From the IMG/VR virus record IMGVR_UViG_2740892231_000005: DNA of 49,646 nt; one strand, written 5' to 3'. Each line of letters starts with the position of its first letter. Position 1 is the stretch's first letter. The notes beneath the pieces are model-generated. The model made no database searches. It had not been told where the DNA came from and saw only the letters and a program-made list of their open reading frames with translations. The stretch is from a virus. Lineage: Duplodnaviria; Heunggongvirae; Uroviricota; Caudoviricetes. Both the position numbers and the translations under genes were made by a program. Below are positions 31,256-49,646 of this stretch, one piece after another.

Positions 31256-31763
31256 TTCATAAAGCAACAAATTACGCGGTAATCGCTTAACGCAGTTTTA
31301 CTACGTTAAATGAAACACTACACCCAGTTACCACCTAAAACAAGGTTTTTCCATAAAAAAAACCTTCATATCGTGGTTAATCGATCAATAAAAAAGCAAT
31401 GTTCAACTTTTTACCAACCGAACATCCCGACCTGGACTTCCATAATATTCGCCGATATGCCACTGCTTAAGTTGAGTAATCTTCTCCAACTTAACTCCCA
31501 TAGAGTCCAGTTTCTGCCATGTTTTCGGTTGTATGTGCTTCATTACCCGCTCTGAATATCTGAATACTGCTCGTAAGCGCATGGTTTCTCACTACAGCTT
31601 ATATAAGTGGTTTTTCCAGCGGTTTTGCGCCGCGCTGCGCTTCTCTTTTACTCCCTCTCTGGCAATTCCAGAAAATGAGAACAACACCACACGGCGATTG
31701 CTAACTCTCAACCACTGGCTGGGATAGCAAAGTCTGTATACACGGGAGATAAGCATCTTAGCT

Positions 31764-32372
31764 TTACGGTTTTTCATCGTTTTGCTCTCCTGCGTCTCCT
31801 TTGGTGCGAATTCCAGCGGCGCGCTCGGCTTCACTTTGTTCCCAAAACCACTTGTGAAGCTCCATGAGCTTTTCGTCAATCGGTGCATATTTGCGATTAA
31901 AGTAGGCCTGAGCATCTTTCTCAGATTCGTCCGGCAATTCGCCTGGACCAAACAGTGTGTTATAAATCCATGCCAGTCCGCTTTTAGCGTCGCCAGTCGA
32001 TTGCCATTCGATAATGGCAGCCTGCATGACCAGAATGTTTTTCCCGATTAATAGGTCCAGTTCTTTGTACCTGTTGCGGATGTATGCATTCTCGCTTTGT
32101 AATTTTGCGTTGCGCTTCTCTGCGGCTTCCAGCTCAACACGCAGCTTCCCTACCGTTAGCGCAATTTCCTCGTTCTCCTGGTCACGGCGTTTTATGTATT
32201 GCTGGTTTCTTTCCCGTTCATCCAGAAGCCCCAGCACAATGTGTGGCGTTATCAAGGACTCAAATTCGGCAACAGCTTGCTCGCCTCGCTTGTAATTCTT
32301 AATCCCACCTAAATCTTTCGCGTTCTGTGCCGCCTCACGCAGTGCCTGATAGTTAATTGCTGTGCTGTTAGT
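31764..32372 (-). CDS. Coiled-coil phage protein (Ea22-like?)
   Basis: About 200 aa from MTNSTAINYQ; heptad-rich central region. Confidence 0.35.
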   Translation of the reverse strand, partial: TNSTAINYQALREAAQNAKDLGGIKNYKRGEQAVAEFESLITPHIVLGLLDERERNQQYIKRRDQENEEIALTVGKLRVELEAAEKRNAKLQSENAYIRNRYKELDLLIGKNILVMQAAIIEWQSTGDAKSGLAWIYNTLFGPGELPDESEKDAQAYFNRKYAPIDEKLMELHKWFWEQSEAERAAGIRTKGDAGEQNDEKP

Positions 32373-32712
32373 CATTCCAGGCCTCCAGCTCGTTCTGAAT
32401 CTCCTCGTCAACCTCGTCATTGGTGGCGTCTTCGTTCAGATGGTCGCGCGCCTCTTTGAGATACTGTTCACGGCGTTCGTGGTACCAGGCAGAGAACTCC
32501 GGCGACCATCCTCGATTAGCCCCCTGAAAATCTACCATCGCATTATCCTCAGCCATACGCTCGACCATGCAATCCGCGGTGGTCAGTGCAACCTCACGGA
32601 TGTACCCCCGCAGGTCACGCTTACGCCAATACGGGCTATATTTTGAGTCGCAGCGACCTTTAAATTCGACGGTCCAGCGACGGATGCAGCGTGCGTTAAG
32701 TGATTTGCTCAT
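32368..32712 (-). CDS. Hypothetical protein
   Basis: 114-aa ORF. Confidence 0.4.
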   Translation of the reverse strand: MSKSLNARCIRRWTVEFKGRCDSKYSPYWRKRDLRGYIREVALTTADCMVERMAEDNAMVDFQGANRGWSPEFSAWYHERREQYLKEARDHLNEDATNDEVDEEIQNELEAWND

Positions 32713-32714
32713 AG

Positions 32715-33398
32715 TTATGCTTCCTGAATACGCTTAAACTCAATTACCCATACCCACGGGTTAGATAGCCAGTTCTCTTGCCCGTAAATACCGCGCCAGA
32801 TATCACCAAAGCCAACGCGATAAACAGCTTCAGGTGGCGTAATCTTGTACGTCGCCGGAGTTGCGCCTTCTGCTTTAGCATCTGCCTCGCTCATGTCATG
32901 CAGCCGCTCCACACGCACGTCGGTAATTTCCAGCAAAATACGCGAAGCCCAGCGCGGCATGTGAATTGATGGACACCACCCGCCATCAAACTTTTCATTC
33001 ACAGTGTGAGGCTTCCAGTCGGCATCATCGGGTATCGACCATAAGCCATAATCCCCCGGTTTTTGCTCACAACTGGCCCGATAAATCCTTGCTGCGTTCT
33101 TCTCATCGCCACGACAAAGGTTGTCGTTCCAGTCCACACTGCAACCATCCTCATTGCCTAATATCGCCCACGCTTCACGGACCCATATGCGATCACCAAC
33201 GTTACCGAACGGGCATAAACCATGTTCAGGTGCATCCATAACGTGGGTATAGACACCATTGCGTTTCTTTGTCGGTTTACGGATAACCAGGCAGTTATCG
33301 GCCCTGACATTTTTTACAGGTCGGCGAGTCTGCGTCTTCCTTCCTTCGAGGATGGCCCTAACCATATCGTCATTAAAAACAACACCACGTTCTTTCAT
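32715..33398 (-). CDS. Hypothetical phage protein (ASCH/PUA-like?)
   Basis: 227 aa; N-terminus MVRAILEGRKTQTRRP typical of a prophage protein family (recalled). Confidence 0.45.
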   Translation of the reverse strand: MKERGVVFNDDMVRAILEGRKTQTRRPVKNVRADNCLVIRKPTKKRNGVYTHVMDAPEHGLCPFGNVGDRIWVREAWAILGNEDGCSVDWNDNLCRGDEKNAARIYRASCEQKPGDYGLWSIPDDADWKPHTVNEKFDGGWCPSIHMPRWASRILLEITDVRVERLHDMSEADAKAEGATPATYKITPPEAVYRVGFGDIWRGIYGQENWLSNPWVWVIEFKRIQEA

Positions 33399-33553
33399 TT
33401 AGAAGCCACCTTGTTCAATTTCCGGCGACAAGACACGCAATCATCAGGACTCTCAAAAGTGTCTGGCTCACGGTAATCACCAAAATACATCCAACGGCCG
33501 CAAATGCTGGTCACTTCACCTTCATTAAAATAATGATGTTTATTCGCCTTCAT
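33395..33553 (-). CDS. Small Cys-containing protein (zinc-ribbon-like?)
   Basis: About 52 aa from MKANKHHY; CGRW...CVSC. Confidence 0.3.
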   Translation of the reverse strand: MKANKHHYFNEGEVTSICGRWMYFGDYREPDTFESPDDCVSCRRKLNKVASK

Positions 33554-33582
33554 TGGCCTGACCCATCCGGCATTTTTCTTGC

Positions 33583-39320: not shown

Positions 39321-39338
39321 CACATGGAGTCTCGACAA

Positions 39339-39992
39339 ATGACTATCTCTGTAGGTATTTTCAACGGAAAAGGCGGCGTAACCAAATCAACAATTGCCCG
39401 TGCTTTAGCAGTTGCTTATGCAAAGGCTGGCTGGAATGTATGCCTGATCGATATGGATGTGCTTAACGGAACGGTAACGCGTTGGGTACAACGCAGAATG
39501 GCCAACAATATCGAACCAGCAATCGCGGCGCAGCCGTGCGGCACACCATCACAAGTCCAGAAAATCATCGAATCAGAAGTATACGACTTGGTTATCGTCG
39601 ATGGCGGTGCCTACGCATCTGAATCAGTACCGAAGCTCTCTGAATTTCTGGATATGGTTATTTTGCCAACCAGATTCTCTACCGATGACCTGGAAACCAC
39701 CGTTAACACAGCTCACGGCATCGTTAAAAAGGGTGTACCAATCAAGAAAATTTGCATGGTGTTTTCCGGCGCGGCTGAAAACGAAGCTGACTATATTGAA
39801 GCCCAAGAGTACCTGGCTAATACGCCATACTTTGTTGTCGATAAGTACATTCCCCACAAGCCAGCTCTGAGCAAAGCTCAGGATAAGGGCTTAAGCCTCA
39901 TTGAGTGCTCATACGTTGCGCCACGCAAAAAGGCAGACGACGTTATTCAGGGGATTATCAACCAGCTTGAGGCTCTGACTACTGCCGCGTAA
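39339..39992 (+). CDS. parA: ParA-family partition ATPase
   Basis: Deviant Walker A GKGGVTKST; start chosen at the second ATG with GGAG RBS (ORF track gives 39324). Confidence 0.8.
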   Translation: MTISVGIFNGKGGVTKSTIARALAVAYAKAGWNVCLIDMDVLNGTVTRWVQRRMANNIEPAIAAQPCGTPSQVQKIIESEVYDLVIVDGGAYASESVPKLSEFLDMVILPTRFSTDDLETTVNTAHGIVKKGVPIKKICMVFSGAAENEADYIEAQEYLANTPYFVVDKYIPHKPALSKAQDKGLSLIECSYVAPRKKADDVIQGIINQLEALTTAA

Positions 39993-45677: not shown

Positions 45678-45977
45678 TCAGATGTTAAACGCTATTCGTT
45701 TTCCTGTGGGAAGCTCAACATCCAGGCTTAATTTGCCTCCCATAGCTTCAACGTAACGCTTTAATGTCGCCAGCTTTAAATCATTTCCGCGCTGCTCCAG
45801 CTTTGTTACTGCTGGCTGGCTTATACCCATCGCCTCAGCAACCTGTTTTTGTGATAACTGGAGTTCTTCACGCATCATCTGCAAGCCGACCTCAAGAATC
45901 ATCTCATCTGCCATTTCTTTAATTCGCGCCTGGCTTTCCGGTGAACGGCTGGCAATCGCCTCATCTAATGTTCTCAT
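45678..45977 (-). CDS. HigA-like antitoxin (XRE HTH)
   Basis: 99 aa; HTH (LSQKQVAEAMGISQPAVTKLEQ); immediately downstream of, and overlapping, the toxin gene. Confidence 0.75.
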   Translation of the reverse strand: MRTLDEAIASRSPESQARIKEMADEMILEVGLQMMREELQLSQKQVAEAMGISQPAVTKLEQRGNDLKLATLKRYVEAMGGKLSLDVELPTGKRIAFNI

Positions 45978-46330
45978 TACTTGCTCTCCAGTGTGTTCAG
46001 ATGTGCTGCAAACTCATCCTCAGCTATACGCACCAGTTTTTCATAAAACCGCTTATCGTTACTTTTGTCTCCTGCACAAAGAACGATGGCCCGGCGAATC
46101 GGATCGAACGCATAAAAGGCTCTTATCGGACGGCCAGAAAACTGAACGCGAAGCTCTTTCATATTTTTGTACCGAGAACCTTTTACGGTATCGGCATATG
46201 GCCTGGGTAACTCAGGTCCGTAAACCTGTAGCTTTTTCAAATCAGCCAAAACCTTTTCCTGAAGAGCGTCTTCTTGCTCATTTAGCCAGTCGTCAAATCG
46301 CTGGCTAAAAAGTACCGTCCACATGCTCAA
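45977..46330 (-). CDS. RelE/ParE-superfamily toxin, HigB-like (toxin-first operon)
   Basis: 117 aa; size, basic character and toxin-antitoxin gene order typical of HigB/HigA modules. Confidence 0.7.
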   Translation of the reverse strand: MSMWTVLFSQRFDDWLNEQEDALQEKVLADLKKLQVYGPELPRPYADTVKGSRYKNMKELRVQFSGRPIRAFYAFDPIRRAIVLCAGDKSNDKRFYEKLVRIAEDEFAAHLNTLESK

Positions 46331-46568: not shown

Positions 46569-46859
46569 CTATTTTTGTGACTTTACTCCTGGCATATGGA
46601 CTTCCCAGCGACGAATCCCCATAGCTGCGCAAAAATCAGCCACATAATTCAATCCCGCCCATTCGCGGATACCACCACGGGCTTTTTCAATGAAAACGGC
46701 AATCCCTTTTTTATTGAGAGCAAAAAGCCGCCAGCTTTTTGTCACTTCGTCCTGGGTAGCCACAACACAAGTGAAAGCTCCCATGCGATACAGGTCCAAG
46801 AACTCTTTGCGTGTTTTGCGTACAAGTTCCATAACAAACCTCATATTTGCATGTTTCAA
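46569..46859 (-). CDS. Hypothetical protein
   Basis: 96-aa ORF; 4-bp overlap with the upstream ORF. Confidence 0.35.
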   Translation of the reverse strand: MKHANMRFVMELVRKTRKEFLDLYRMGAFTCVVATQDEVTKSWRLFALNKKGIAVFIEKARGGIREWAGLNYVADFCAAMGIRRWEVHMPGVKSQK

Positions 46860-47155
46860 ACATCTGTTTTGTTATCAATGAAGATTAACCCTAACCCAGC
46901 GAAGTAACACAGCAGCGCCCAGGCTGCATACGGAATGCTGGATCTGGATGTGGACTCCTTTAACATCTGCCAGTTGCGAACATTGCGACTATCTTTTAAG
47001 CCAAGTTTTTTGGCCAACTGCGAGCCGCTCATTCCGGTCAGGCCAATGACTGCCCGAACTTCTCCACATGTAGGAGATTCCCATTCATCCGCTTTTTTTA
47101 AACAAGCCGGATTCAACATTTTTAAAACAGTATCTTTATCCATAACCATCTCCAT
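46856..47155 (-). CDS. Hypothetical protein with HTH-like segment
   Basis: 99 aa; GLTGMSGSQLAKKLGL. Confidence 0.4.
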   Translation of the reverse strand: MEMVMDKDTVLKMLNPACLKKADEWESPTCGEVRAVIGLTGMSGSQLAKKLGLKDSRNVRNWQMLKESTSRSSIPYAAWALLCYFAGLGLIFIDNKTDV

Positions 47156-47159
47156 TTAT

Positions 47160-47786
47160 TATATCTACGATGGTAGGAAATCTTTTCCTATGTGGCAATA
47201 GAAATTTACTACATTGCGTATAAGACAAGTTTTCTATGTCTAATAGGAAATGATGTTTCTTACGTTTTATCGCGTTCTGATGGCTACTGTGTGCGTATTT
47301 ATCGACGTTTATTGATAAGGCTCGCCCCTTCCTCCTGCAAAGCCTGGCCGTAGGCCTTATTTCGGCCTTATATAAATTGATTTTGTATAGTTCGAAACGC
47401 GCCGTTTCGAAAAGGATGATCAGGCTGCTCCATGCCTCCGGCAAGTGCCGGAGGAGGTATATTTGAGCGTAGCGACTCGAACCGGCGCGAGCTTTAGCTC
47501 GCTGCAAGGGCGAACATATTCACAGGCAAAGCCTGCGTAAGTTAAATAAAGAAAGTTTTAATAAAAGAAAGTGATTTTGCATTTATTTGTTTAGTGCATC
47601 TATTATAAAAAACCATTTGCATATACATATCAAAACTGTGGATAACTTTATTAGCCGATGCCTGTAAAGGCGATATTTTTGCTGTGTTCAGGTTTAGAGA
47701 AAATTAATTTAGATTGTTTTTTGAACAGATATTTTATTGCGACGTAGATAATCCTCCGGTAAAACCGGATTCATCATTCAGGTGGG
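47160..47786. other. Putative replication origin region downstream of repA: AT-rich tracts and a DnaA box (tgtggataa, 47637..47645)
   Basis: Consensus DnaA box seen; AT-rich, ORF-poor; position analogous to oriR of IncFII replicons. Confidence 0.5.
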
Positions 47787-48779
47787 TTAATGTTGGAGTG
47801 ATTTCCAGGTCTTTCTTAGCCTGTTATAACGCTGCTCAACGAGGGAGCGTAAATATGCAAGGTCAGCACCAGGATACATGCCATCAGCAAATTCCTGGCT
47901 AACCTCTCTAGTGATTTGATGGCGAAGTTCGGCCTCTCCCTTTTCCTGAACAAGACGCGCAGCTCTCTCCGCTGCTTTCTGTTTTGCCTTTATCTCTCTG
48001 GCCGTCTTCCTCTGACGCCATACATTCTCCATCTGCTCCTGAATAACAATACGCTTATAATCAGCCTCCGTTATCGCTTTTTTAAGCCGTTCGCTATTCT
48101 TCGCATTGAAGTAATTAAGTTTCTGGCTAACCGCACGTCTCCATGCTTGTTCAGTAATACCAACTGTTTCCAGCAGTTGATCACGAATCTCGATTTTCGC
48201 TGGCCAATACTGTTTATTCACCCGATCCCAGCGACGTTCATAATCAATAAAACCTAACTCTTTCAGTTGCGACAACGCCCTTGTACAGCGCGTTATAGAC
48301 TTGTTCCCAGCTTCGGATACGGTAGACAGGCCGCAAAAATCAGCCAACGCCTCAGCACTGGCCAGAACCCGCTTAGAAATGATGTTTACATGGTGCAAAA
48401 TCGCAGCAATCACAGCATTAATCGCCCGACGACGATGCTCGTTTATCCGGCGTTTCCGCTCTGACGGTTGATTAACGTAGAACGCAACCTCACACGTAAG
48501 ATCACGACCATTAATGCGCTGTAAAGCATCAGATAACACCAGCGGCAGCTTGTGCGTATGGTGCTTTGGAGGCTGGAACTCCGGCGACAAATTACAAACG
48601 TAAGCTGAACGTAGAGACGGCATTGGTCTATCCATATGTTCGCTCTTGCGTCCACGGAAAACCAACGTATAATGGGAGTTGTCGAGGCGCCCATGGTTAG
48701 TTGTTGGTTTTCCTTTCCGTGGATGTCGCAAGAAGCCCGCAGATTTATCTGCGGGCTTTTTGTTTCCATATCTGGTCAC
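47787..48779 (-). CDS. repA: Plasmid replication initiator, IncFII RepA1-like
   Basis: 330 aa; SITRCTRALSQLKELGFIDYERRWD resembles the recalled RepA1 segment SITRATRALTFLSELGLITYQTEYD. Confidence 0.75.
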   Translation of the reverse strand: MTRYGNKKPADKSAGFLRHPRKGKPTTNHGRLDNSHYTLVFRGRKSEHMDRPMPSLRSAYVCNLSPEFQPPKHHTHKLPLVLSDALQRINGRDLTCEVAFYVNQPSERKRRINEHRRRAINAVIAAILHHVNIISKRVLASAEALADFCGLSTVSEAGNKSITRCTRALSQLKELGFIDYERRWDRVNKQYWPAKIEIRDQLLETVGITEQAWRRAVSQKLNYFNAKNSERLKKAITEADYKRIVIQEQMENVWRQRKTAREIKAKQKAAERAARLVQEKGEAELRHQITREVSQEFADGMYPGADLAYLRSLVEQRYNRLRKTWKSLQH

Positions 48780-48950
48780 TTTTCAACCAGACACCCACAA
48801 TCATAACCACGTTACGTGGTTTTAAGAGAACTCTACCACAACACTTTCGGTCATGCACGAAGTCTCTCACTGATCGAACGATAATCCACCAGTAAAAGGA
48901 TCTAAATTGGATCTCGTTTTGCGAGCATCATACTACTGGCCTAACTCCAG

Positions 48951-49505
48951 TCAATGATTCCCAGCCGGAAACCTGCGGTAAAGCGTGGATAAGGTAACAT
49001 CGAAGATAATCGCTATCCGCTTACGTGAAACACCATTCGCAATAAGCCTTCCGATCTGTTCCCATTGCTCTGGTGCCAATTTTGAGCGGCGTCCTCCTAT
49101 CCTGCCGTTAGCCCTTGCCACCGCCAATCCTGCACGCGTTCTTTCAATCATATTTTCCCGCTCCATCTCTGCGACTGCACTCAGCATCGTGTAGGCAAAG
49201 CGGCCAATTGAAGTGCTAATTTTTATCCCTTCCGTAATCGAAATAAACTCAATGTTGTTTGATAAAAAATAGTTTAGTAAATCAACAAGATGAATCAGAG
49301 AACGCCCCATTCGGTCCAGCTTCCAGACAATAACCGTATCGCCCGGCCGTAACACCTTCAGTAGCTTATCAAGTCCTGGTCGTTTTGATTTAGCACCGGA
49401 TATTTTATCTTCAAAAATCCGGTCACATCCTGAACTCCTGAGCGCCTCCAATTGTAATTCCAAATTCTGGTCAAAAGTTGACACCCTCGCATAACCATAT
49501 TGCAT
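48951..49505 (-). CDS. Serine DNA invertase, Gin/Cin/Pin/Hin family
   Basis: 184 aa; N-terminal YARVSTFDQ with catalytic Ser; alignable by eye with Gin along the full length. Confidence 0.95.
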   Translation of the reverse strand: MQYGYARVSTFDQNLELQLEALRSSGCDRIFEDKISGAKSKRPGLDKLLKVLRPGDTVIVWKLDRMGRSLIHLVDLLNYFLSNNIEFISITEGIKISTSIGRFAYTMLSAVAEMERENMIERTRAGLAVARANGRIGGRRSKLAPEQWEQIGRLIANGVSRKRIAIIFDVTLSTLYRRFPAGNH

Positions 49506-49569
49506 ACTTTCTAAACCGCGATTGTTGCTAAAAGCGGGAAAAAATATCGTTCAGACGACACAGAGGCAA

Positions 49570-49595
49570 TTCGCAAAAACCTCGGTTTACAGGAA
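49570..49595. promoter_or_regulatory. gix/cix-like crossover site B (ttcgcaaaaacc tc ggtttacaggaa), inverted relative to site A
   Basis: Shares the half-site ggtttacaggaa and central dinucleotide with 2937..2962; 65 bp upstream of the invertase start. Confidence 0.7.
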
Positions 49596-49646
49596 ACGGT
49601 AAACAAGGCTGGTAACGCTGTTCAAAAGACAGGCGATACCTTGTCC
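49590..49646 (+). CDS. 5' end of a tail-fibre variable cassette (partial; runs off the window end)
   Basis: Translates to [19 protein letters not shown], identical to the N-terminus of the variable part of the 1929..4310 fibre. Confidence 0.6.

Follow-up and report, generated by a model that had tools for sequence, protein, structure and literature searches.

Organization of the replicon locus and the initiator gene

The DNA considered here, the IMG/VR record IMGVR_UViG_2740892231_000005 of a tailed virus (Caudoviricetes), is 49,646 nucleotides (nt) long and is referred to throughout as the window; the system in question is a plasmid-type replicon near its end, centered on repA, the gene for a replication initiator (47787..48623 including the stop codon, minus strand, 278 amino acids (aa)). 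A serine invertase gene (48951-49505), combining a Resolvase and an HTH_7 domain, lies immediately upstream of repA on the same strand. Between the two genes is a leader region with several conserved hairpins and a predicted antisense RNA, and downstream of the repA stop follow a conserved spacer, a DnaA box, an AT-rich origin core and a block of GC-rich hairpins. A preliminary description had assigned the span 47160-48950 to an IncFII-like replicon of a plasmid prophage.

RepA is a member of the IncFII_repA family: the program-made open reading frame (ORF; 47787..48779, minus strand, 330 aa, GTG start) matches Pfam PF02387 with an E-value of 5.5e-44 (151 bits, cutoff 22.9) over its residues 57-323, spanning 271 of the 275 profile positions, and scores 232 bits with the NCBIfam model NF040977 'RepA_IncFII_LM' (cutoff 70). 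The gene is kept intact at 58-100% identity across genera. Its orthologues of 58-86% identity are nearly all 277 aa long (range 274-284; the Salmonella orthologue is annotated with 277 aa), and an alignment of six diverged loci places their common start at the ATG at 48623 (MPSLRSAYVCN...). In the leader alignment the indels upstream of this ATG have lengths that are not multiples of three, and the N-terminal extensions found in 99%-identical copies differ in frame, so the first ~52 codons of the long ORF (48624-48779) are leader and not coding. The 330-aa extension of the window and the 326-aa extension given to the E. coli copies by the Prokaryotic Genome Annotation Pipeline (PGAP), being in different reading frames, were both rejected, and the extent of repA to 48779 in the preliminary description has to be corrected to 48623.

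Beyond its own clade the nearest relatives of RepA are found on a Buchnera plasmid (46.8% identity) and on plasmids of the MOB-suite rep_cluster_1367, the pKPC_UVA01 type (36.8%). A scan of genome contigs with the single RepA protein gave no match, and the corresponding profile scan recovered only relatives at 29-38% identity; among solved structures none is related to RepA by sequence. The PHROGs entry for the protein is phrog_7060, labelled 'unknown function', and phage records such as OR545055.1 carry it as hypothetical. In two loci with a RepA 60% identical to that of the window (L004:2516-3004 and L005:2516-3004), repA is directly preceded by a gene for a 162-aa protein paralogous to the winged-helix half that makes up the RepA N-terminus; it overlaps repA by 4 nt, its product shares 29% identity over 161 aa, and it stands in the place of the antisense-type leader. 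This paralogue could be an initiator-derived protein repressor or helper.

Extrachromosomal state of the element

Chromosomal flanks are missing from the window, which runs collinear with the entire circular plasmid (48,488 bp) of Escherichia coli ATCC 25922; relative to that plasmid the window is cut inside an invertible tail-fibre segment, which has the opposite orientation in the window. Among 5,426 complete E. coli genomes the replicon is present in 71, and its 82 locations are plasmids in every case (82/82) and chromosomal in none. All 63 carriers of the replicon in PLSDB are typed as non-mobilizable; they measure 32-94 kb, mostly 46-52 kb. A 3.1-kb region is 97-99.9% identical to dozens of plasmids from E. 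coli, E. albertii, E. fergusonii and Klebsiella, and a further three genomes of 49 kb, entered in the database as Yersinia phages vB_YpM_39, 41 and 44, are 98.7% identical.

The annotation of the ATCC 25922 plasmid lists terminase, portal, capsid, tail and baseplate proteins, holins, a lysin and ParA. No integrase is annotated in this near-identical plasmid, where the invertase is the sole annotated site-specific recombinase. ParA and a ribbon-helix-helix (RHH) protein, together with the lack of an integrase, had earlier been taken as signs of plasmid maintenance: ParA was confirmed in the window (39324-39992) and the missing integrase agrees with the annotation, but the supposed RHH protein, encoded by an 84-aa ORF beside ParA, is without a Pfam match. 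By annotation and database records the element possesses the components of a phage-plasmid, namely a full virion and lysis gene set, replication and partition genes and one extrachromosomal replicon. The evidence strongly supports the earlier proposal of a plasmid prophage, i.e. a ~49-kb tailed phage of E. coli that lives as a free plasmid and does not integrate. Integration between flanking att sites, the contrary case considered in the preliminary description, does not apply, because the copies are extrachromosomal and the window corresponds to a closed circle without flanks.

It is also conceivable that the replicon is a relic, and that the element is kept by integration or by a different, unrecognised replication system. 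Several early-region proteins are of unknown function, and a DUF3560 protein partly matches a PHROG labelled primase; against this stand the chromosome-free distribution and closed circle just described, the missing integrase annotation and the preservation both of an intact repA and of the regulatory and origin DNA around it, and no second replication initiator was recognised in the annotation of the ATCC 25922 plasmid or by PHROG comparison. We regard a relic as extremely improbable.

Two further observations concern the near-identical plasmids. The 94,204-bp record NZ_CP032086.1, likewise of E. coli ATCC 25922, has two copies of the replicon and about twice the plasmid length, representing a dimer or an assembly artefact. 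The ATCC 25922 plasmid lacks a stretch of ~2 kb (31575-33582) that in the window encodes an Ead/Ea22-like protein along with others of unknown function, a difference that shows cassette exchange in the early region. A literature search by accession numbers and phage names found no paper describing the replicon or the near-identical phages and plasmids.

The origin downstream of repA

Downstream of the repA stop the GC content is 0.35-0.38 over 47450-47900. The spacer after the stop has a hairpin, TCCGG-loop-CCGGA (47769-47755), and a TTCAAAAAACAATC block (47724-47711), which are kept in the six loci while the loop varies; by analogy, this minus-strand element (47711..47769) would be the counterpart of the CIS spacer between repA and oriR of R1 and R100. 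The function of CIS is established for R1. The DnaA box TTATCCACA (47637..47645, minus strand), 142 bp after the stop, forms the repA-proximal edge of the origin and is the only perfect DnaA box in the 49.6-kb window. Since 47 of 100 shuffled sequences have at least one such box, its weight comes from its conserved place rather than its rarity: amid variable sequence all six diverged loci have the box at the corresponding position, either perfect or with one mismatch. The AT-rich region with a consensus DnaA box noted earlier downstream of repA is therefore well founded, and the arrangement by which an IncFII oriR is recognized, a DnaA box and then an AT-rich region downstream of repA with a CIS-like spacer between, is present.

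Past the DnaA box lies the origin core (47538..47636, minus strand; GC 0.35), which is near invariant in the six loci and is characterized by three ATGCA motifs (47622, 47599 and 47582; spacing 23 and 17 bp) and an AT-rich stretch. The motifs are candidate RepA-binding sites, and the AT-rich stretch following them probably unwinds. Directly past this stretch are five conserved GC-rich hairpins (47333..47537). Their alignment contains 47 predicted pairs, five with compensatory changes, the stems being conserved and the loops variable, and folding as single-stranded DNA gives z-scores of -3.5 and -4.5 on the two strands. The block has a motif, CCCTTGCAGCG-hairpin-CGCGCCGGTTCG..TCGCTACGCTC, in common with the pKPC_UVA01-type locus L031. 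By analogy with the G-site that lies downstream of oriR in R1, it may be a single-strand initiation (priming) module or a helicase-entry module.

Of the span in the preliminary description, the stretch 47160-47198 falls outside the replicon and constitutes the promoter/operator of the next gene. A palindrome there, TAGGAAA-N3-TTTCCTA (47190-47174), lies between -35- and -10-like hexamers ahead of a small helix-turn-helix-like gene (46856-47155) and is kept in all related loci; it is probably an autoregulated operator.

The repA leader and a predicted antisense RNA

Eight diverged leaders, read in the sense of repA, share a common order of elements: a promoter, a pair of GATC sites, a AAACCACG hairpin, a hairpin of variable sequence and an almost invariant block. 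The candidate repA promoter, TTGACT-17-TATGAT (48927..48954, minus strand), was found by a consensus scan with 10 of 12 matches and overlaps the end of the invertase gene. Of the six leaders long enough to include this site, five have both hexamers at the same spacing and one, that of locus L025, has the -10 only; this conservation suggests that it serves as the promoter of repA. Just downstream of the -10 are two GATC (Dam) sites exactly 11 bp apart (48899..48913); the pair and its spacing are kept in 8/8 diverged leaders, whereas the bases in between vary. A role of Dam and SeqA, or another methylation-linked control of repA transcription, is a matter of speculation. Farther on, an extended -10-like sequence TGnTAGAGT (TGGTAGAGT; 48838-48830, minus strand) immediately precedes the palindrome AAACCACG-N3/4-CGTGGTT (48805..48822, minus strand), whose stem is invariant and whose loop is variable in the eight leaders. 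The region 48805-48838 could act as an additional, operator-bearing promoter of repA, mark the 5' end of another transcript, or provide an RNA element or a hairpin that stabilises the 5' end. In the following hairpin, CTGGT...ACCAG (48772..48790, minus strand), complementarity is kept though the sequences differ across lineages, with exchanges such as TGAC/GTCA and TTGGCA/TGCCGA read by eye from the alignment. The hairpins in 48780..48950 had been proposed as the site of a copy-control antisense RNA: two conserved hairpins do lie there, but a promoter-plus-terminator unit of the antisense kind does not, and the RNA is better placed at 48680-48766 on the plus strand.

The copy-control antisense RNA predicted at this place (48680..48766, plus strand) is ~87 nt long and is indicated by a promoter, a fold, covariation and a terminator. 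Its predicted promoter, TTGCGT-16-TATAAT (48646..48673, plus strand), has a -35 at 48646-48651 and a perfect -10 at 48668-48673; none of the distinct homologues deviates in the hexamers or in their spacing, while the intervening sequence is variable, and the distant leaders of L003 and L031 have analogous TATAAT promoters on the antisense strand. Some 85 nt past the -10 there is a GC-rich hairpin and then TTTTTGTTT. The RNA would be composed of an 8-nt 5' tail, stem-loop I (48686-48727), stem-loop II acting as intrinsic terminator (48728-48763) and a U-run, with a 5' end that the sequence appears to fix within ~3 nt. Its minimum free energy (MFE) is -40.6 kcal/mol (z = -6.9), and the same fold is adopted by all homologues folded (11 sequences). 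Across 15 distinct sequences all 386 of 386 pair cells are standard pairs, and three pairs have compensatory changes; the covariation score exceeds 500/500 shuffles, and slid controls are at most 54% paired. The fold is specific to the antisense strand because its five G.U pairs, four of them invariant and one present in 12/15 sequences, are C.A mismatches on the sense strand. Likewise the terminator has its U-run in the antisense direction only (UUUUUGUUU, invariant, against UUCUU or UCCUU in the sense direction). From these features we infer that the RNA is transcribed. A search of 46800-49646 against Rfam (E<=10) returned a sole match, the Thr_leader family, on the plus strand at 48650-48765; at 34.6 bits against a threshold of 55 it reflects the hairpin-plus-terminator shape, and membership was rejected.

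The part of this RNA expected to recognize its target is also the most variable part of the replicon. When 12 distinct E. coli-type copies are compared, 89 of 1,502 columns vary, with a background of ~1.3 variable columns per 25; the two 25-column bins over 48695-48737 have 15. This hypervariable patch (48695..48737) forms the apical loop of antisense stem-loop I and, on the opposite strand, the internal loop of the target hairpin. The window copy has a 5-nt GGAAA insertion in it, and the loop types differ between copies, e.g. the window type and the CAACAACAACAATCC type. Such a hot spot is what one would expect if diversifying selection acts on a determinant of copy control and incompatibility. 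Variation is also raised, though less strongly, in the spacer that separates the post-stop block from the DnaA box (47645-47720), where 14/75 columns vary and which is unalignable between lineages.

A putative three-segment switch at the repA start

Three segments of the leader, all read on the minus strand, can be combined into two mutually exclusive hairpins. Segment 1 (48703..48722), complementary to the predicted antisense RNA, is the 5' arm of the target hairpin; segment 2 (CGUUGGUUUUCCGUGG, 48652..48667) is its 3' arm, lies outside the antisense RNA and can pair with either segment 1 or segment 3; and segment 3 (48621..48636), comprising a Shine-Dalgarno (SD)-like GGA and the repA AUG, is the predicted partner of segment 2 once this is freed. 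The 1:2 hairpin has -25 to -37 kcal/mol in 8/8 homologues, with compensatory changes at three pairs. At two positions of segment 2, 7 (U/A) and 10 (U/C), the base changes in step with its partner in segment 1 and also with that in segment 3. In folds of the leader without the stretch that the antisense RNA would cover, the 2:3 hairpin is the MFE structure in 8/8 homologues, spanning -18 to +2 around the repA AUG and including the SD-like GGA. The duplex of segments 2 and 3 has z-scores of -2.2 to -3.9 against shuffles in six of seven lineages, and in 5/6 no other 24-nt window within the initial 600 nt of the coding sequence pairs as well with segment 2. For this region MAFFT with RNAalifold gave the inner stem only, because indels misalign the outer stem; per-sequence folds and a table of positions were used instead.

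These folding predictions point to an antisense-induced refolding switch that would sequester the start of repA. The gene would be transcribed from the promoter at 48954-48927 through a leader of ~300 nt, and the ~87-nt antisense RNA, with its constitutive-looking promoter, would set the copy number. As long as the antisense RNA is lacking, segments 1 and 2 would form the long hairpin and leave the ribosome-binding region and AUG in segment 3 free. Pairing of the antisense RNA with segment 1 and the loops would release segment 2, which would then pair with segment 3 and hide the start codon, such that RepA synthesis would fall as the copy number rises. The apical loop of stem-loop I would be the element of recognition and the incompatibility determinant, diversifying among near-identical elements, and RepA would act on the origin directly downstream of its own gene.

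Alternatively, the main effect of the antisense RNA might be to end transcription prematurely in the repA leader or to expose this leader to RNase III cleavage, and not to mask the start codon. In the sense leader, the sequence opposite the antisense terminator forms a strong hairpin with UUCUUGCG after it, and a long duplex of antisense RNA and leader would suit RNase III, for which the CopA-CopT duplex is an established substrate. Termination is disfavored by the poor sense U-tract noted above, as opposed to the invariant antisense U-run, and by the lack of a U-run after the 2:3 hairpin; moreover, both routes leave the triple covariation of segments 1, 2 and 3 unexplained. We consider this unlikely, if not to be dismissed.

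A control mode as in IncI-alpha, IncB, IncK and IncL-M, where an antisense RNA prevents both the translation of a short leader peptide and the folding of an activating pseudoknot between the target loop and a site beside the repA ribosome-binding site, is suggested by membership in the same RepA superfamily, by the invariant apical loop of the target hairpin (GGGCGCCUCGACAAC) with its GGCG/CGCC-like motifs, by an invariant GGACGC near the start region and by a conserved AUG 12-17 nt before the repA AUG. The ORFs that begin at this upstream AUG, however, differ in length (13, 46 and >100 codons) and in frame, the frame in the E. coli copies being that of repA, and the AUG sits in a stem of the 2:3 hairpin, which accounts for its conservation; nor does inspection by eye reveal a clean complement of the loop near the ribosome-binding site. 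Across the six loci no leader ORF of the Tap, RepY or RepB kind is conserved in start, frame or length. Three candidates for a leader peptide were rejected individually: the one from the ATG at 48693 (MGAST...) is missing in L007 and L008, those from the ATG at 48635 are inconsistent in frame and length, and a 9-10-codon ORF near 48850 has a start that is not conserved. Control of the IncI type is, in our estimate, quite unlikely.

Several points weigh against the refolding switch and the antisense RNA on which it depends. The RNA is predicted from its sequence and fold, and its covariation comes from few independent lineages, ~5 in number; since its -35 matches the consensus at 3/6 positions only, the promoter was not flagged by the consensus scan. 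The invariance of 48646-48694 could serve another purpose, e.g. a protein site. In the window alone the local 2:3 fold (z = -1.6) is not significantly above shuffles, and in the L025 lineage the 2:3 pairing is weak (z = -1.4). The switch does not account for the hairpin at 48805-48822, the possible second promoter or the GATC pair, and the assignment of the hairpin block at 47333-47537 as a priming or helicase-entry module is by analogy. Taking both sides together, we read 47333-48954 as the theta-type, RepA-dependent replicon of a ~49-kb phage-plasmid, belonging to the IncFII_repA superfamily and controlled by an antisense RNA and switch, with a probability of about 0.7.

More tentatively, and with the odds somewhat against it, the leader may embody an undescribed copy-control circuit within the IncFII_repA superfamily, one that combines a two-hairpin antisense RNA with a three-segment switch and dispenses with CopB, leader peptide and pseudoknot. 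If so, the hypervariable loop would generate many mutually compatible replicon types among phages that are 98-99% identical. As no other initiator is recognisable, the same RepA and origin may, under this proposal, also serve lytic replication after the restraint by the antisense RNA has been overcome.

Neighbouring genes and implications

The tail-fibre segment beside the invertase (431-2150 and 49506-49646) is inverted against its flanks relative to the ATCC 25922 plasmid, and the end of the window matches the boundary repeat of the Mu/D108 G segment; this indicates an active host-range switch of the Gin/Cin type. Close to the replicon on its other side, a gene for a toxin of the Gp49/RelE family (45977-46330) shares one base with an antitoxin-like HTH_3 gene (45678-45977), and the two (45678-46330) look like a toxin-antitoxin stability module.

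The element occurs in ~1.3% of the complete genomes of E. coli, among them that of the reference strain ATCC 25922, and also in isolates of Salmonella, Klebsiella, E. albertii and E. fergusonii. Its initiator is without a function label in phage databases and is given an N-terminus ~50 residues too long by genome pipelines. A correct map of repA, the origin and the probable incompatibility RNA would be useful for typing phage-plasmids and for explaining their coexistence, and the replicon, at ~1.6 kb, is a compact target for cloning and curing. As a module it is of the expected kind; what it is predicted to add is a variant of antisense control, apparently undescribed, and not a new principle.

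Comparison with known replicons

In its layout the replicon resembles those of the IncFII plasmids R1 and R100. Beyond the shared Pfam family of RepA, the order of control region, repA, spacer and origin with DnaA box and AT-rich sequence is that of R100, where the DnaA box lies 177 bp after the stop as against 142 bp here, and a post-stop hairpin (AATCCGG..CCGGAGG) and a CAAAAAAC block are also present after R100 repA1. Global alignment to the CIS/oriR region of R100 is collinear, with a score of 138 against 104 +/- 9 for shuffles. Both leaders feature an antisense RNA of ~90 nt with two hairpins, predicted here 57-143 nt upstream of repA and located 85-175 nt upstream in the case of CopA. 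These similarities in family, origin layout and the size and position of the RNA might suggest a canonical IncFII replicon with CopA RNA, CopB repressor and translational coupling through Tap, but the particulars make this most improbable. RepA scores 81 bits with TIGR03474, the equivalog model of IncFII proper, far below the cutoff of 447, and R100 RepA1 is aligned by BLASTP over 97 aa only, at 41% identity. No classical IncFII plasmid is found among the 243 PLSDB tblastn matches at E<=1e-10. The Rfam CopA model (RF00042) has no match here at E<=10, while R100 as positive control gives 106 bits. The ~330 bp between the invertase stop (48951) and the repA start (48623) offer no room for copB (repA2) and hold no conserved ORF, and the short leader ORFs that might stand for tap differ in start, frame and length among the six loci. 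The mode of control differs too: hiding of the repA start, induced by the antisense RNA, is predicted here, whereas in R1 and R100 the translation of a leader peptide is blocked. The likeness to IncFII RepA1 claimed in the preliminary description holds at the level of the superfamily (PF02387, NF040977) and fails for IncFII proper, and the alignment to an IncFII replicon that it had called for gives the same divided answer, with the origin collinear and the CopA, copB and tap components absent. The replicon is IncFII-like in layout and not a member of IncFII proper, being a distant relative with an apparently undescribed control region; its different antisense RNA predicts compatibility with IncFII plasmids.

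The IncI-alpha, IncB, IncK, IncZ and IncL-M replicons employ an antisense RNA (Inc RNA or RNAI), a RepY or RepB leader peptide and a pseudoknot. With them the replicon shares the RepA superfamily, the opposition of an antisense RNA to a leader hairpin and the principle that a structure at the repA ribosome-binding site decides translation. It differs in having no conserved leader ORF and, as judged by eye, no evident pseudoknot partner, and in an antisense RNA with two stem-loops and a 5' tail where theirs has one stem-loop. The pKPC_UVA01-type plasmids (rep_cluster_1367) are close in the origin: L031 has the core with three ATGCA motifs, at spacings of 23 and 18 bp, and the block with CCCTTGCAGCG-hairpin-CGCGCCGGTTCG, and its leader has an antisense-strand TATAAT promoter with a terminator. 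The leader and antisense RNA of these and the Buchnera plasmids are nevertheless of another type, consisting of one long stem-loop whose sense loop carries UUGGCG, and their carriers are mobilizable resistance plasmids or symbiont plasmids instead of phages.

Among phage-plasmids, P1, N15 and SSU5/pSLy3 are temperate tailed phages that persist as plasmids at low copy number and carry partition genes (PMC7969092). The ~48-kb family was not matched to any of the groups SSU5, pSLy3, P1 and D6; membership in pSLy3/SSU5 was rejected, this being a different group (the SSU5 supercommunity). The element is similar to these phages in that its replicon is accompanied by ParA and a toxin-antitoxin pair, and it differs in a replicon type unrelated to theirs. 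P1 depends on a RepA of the iteron kind, N15 on one of the linear-plasmid kind.

Precedents for the logic of the proposed control come from Gram-positive hosts and unrelated Rep proteins. In pSK41, refolding induced by the antisense RNAI hides the rep start, and in pT181 and pIP501 attenuation results from an inhibitory hairpin that terminates transcription. The common denominator of these systems and the switch predicted here is that binding of an antisense RNA upstream frees a segment of the leader, which then forms an inhibitory hairpin.

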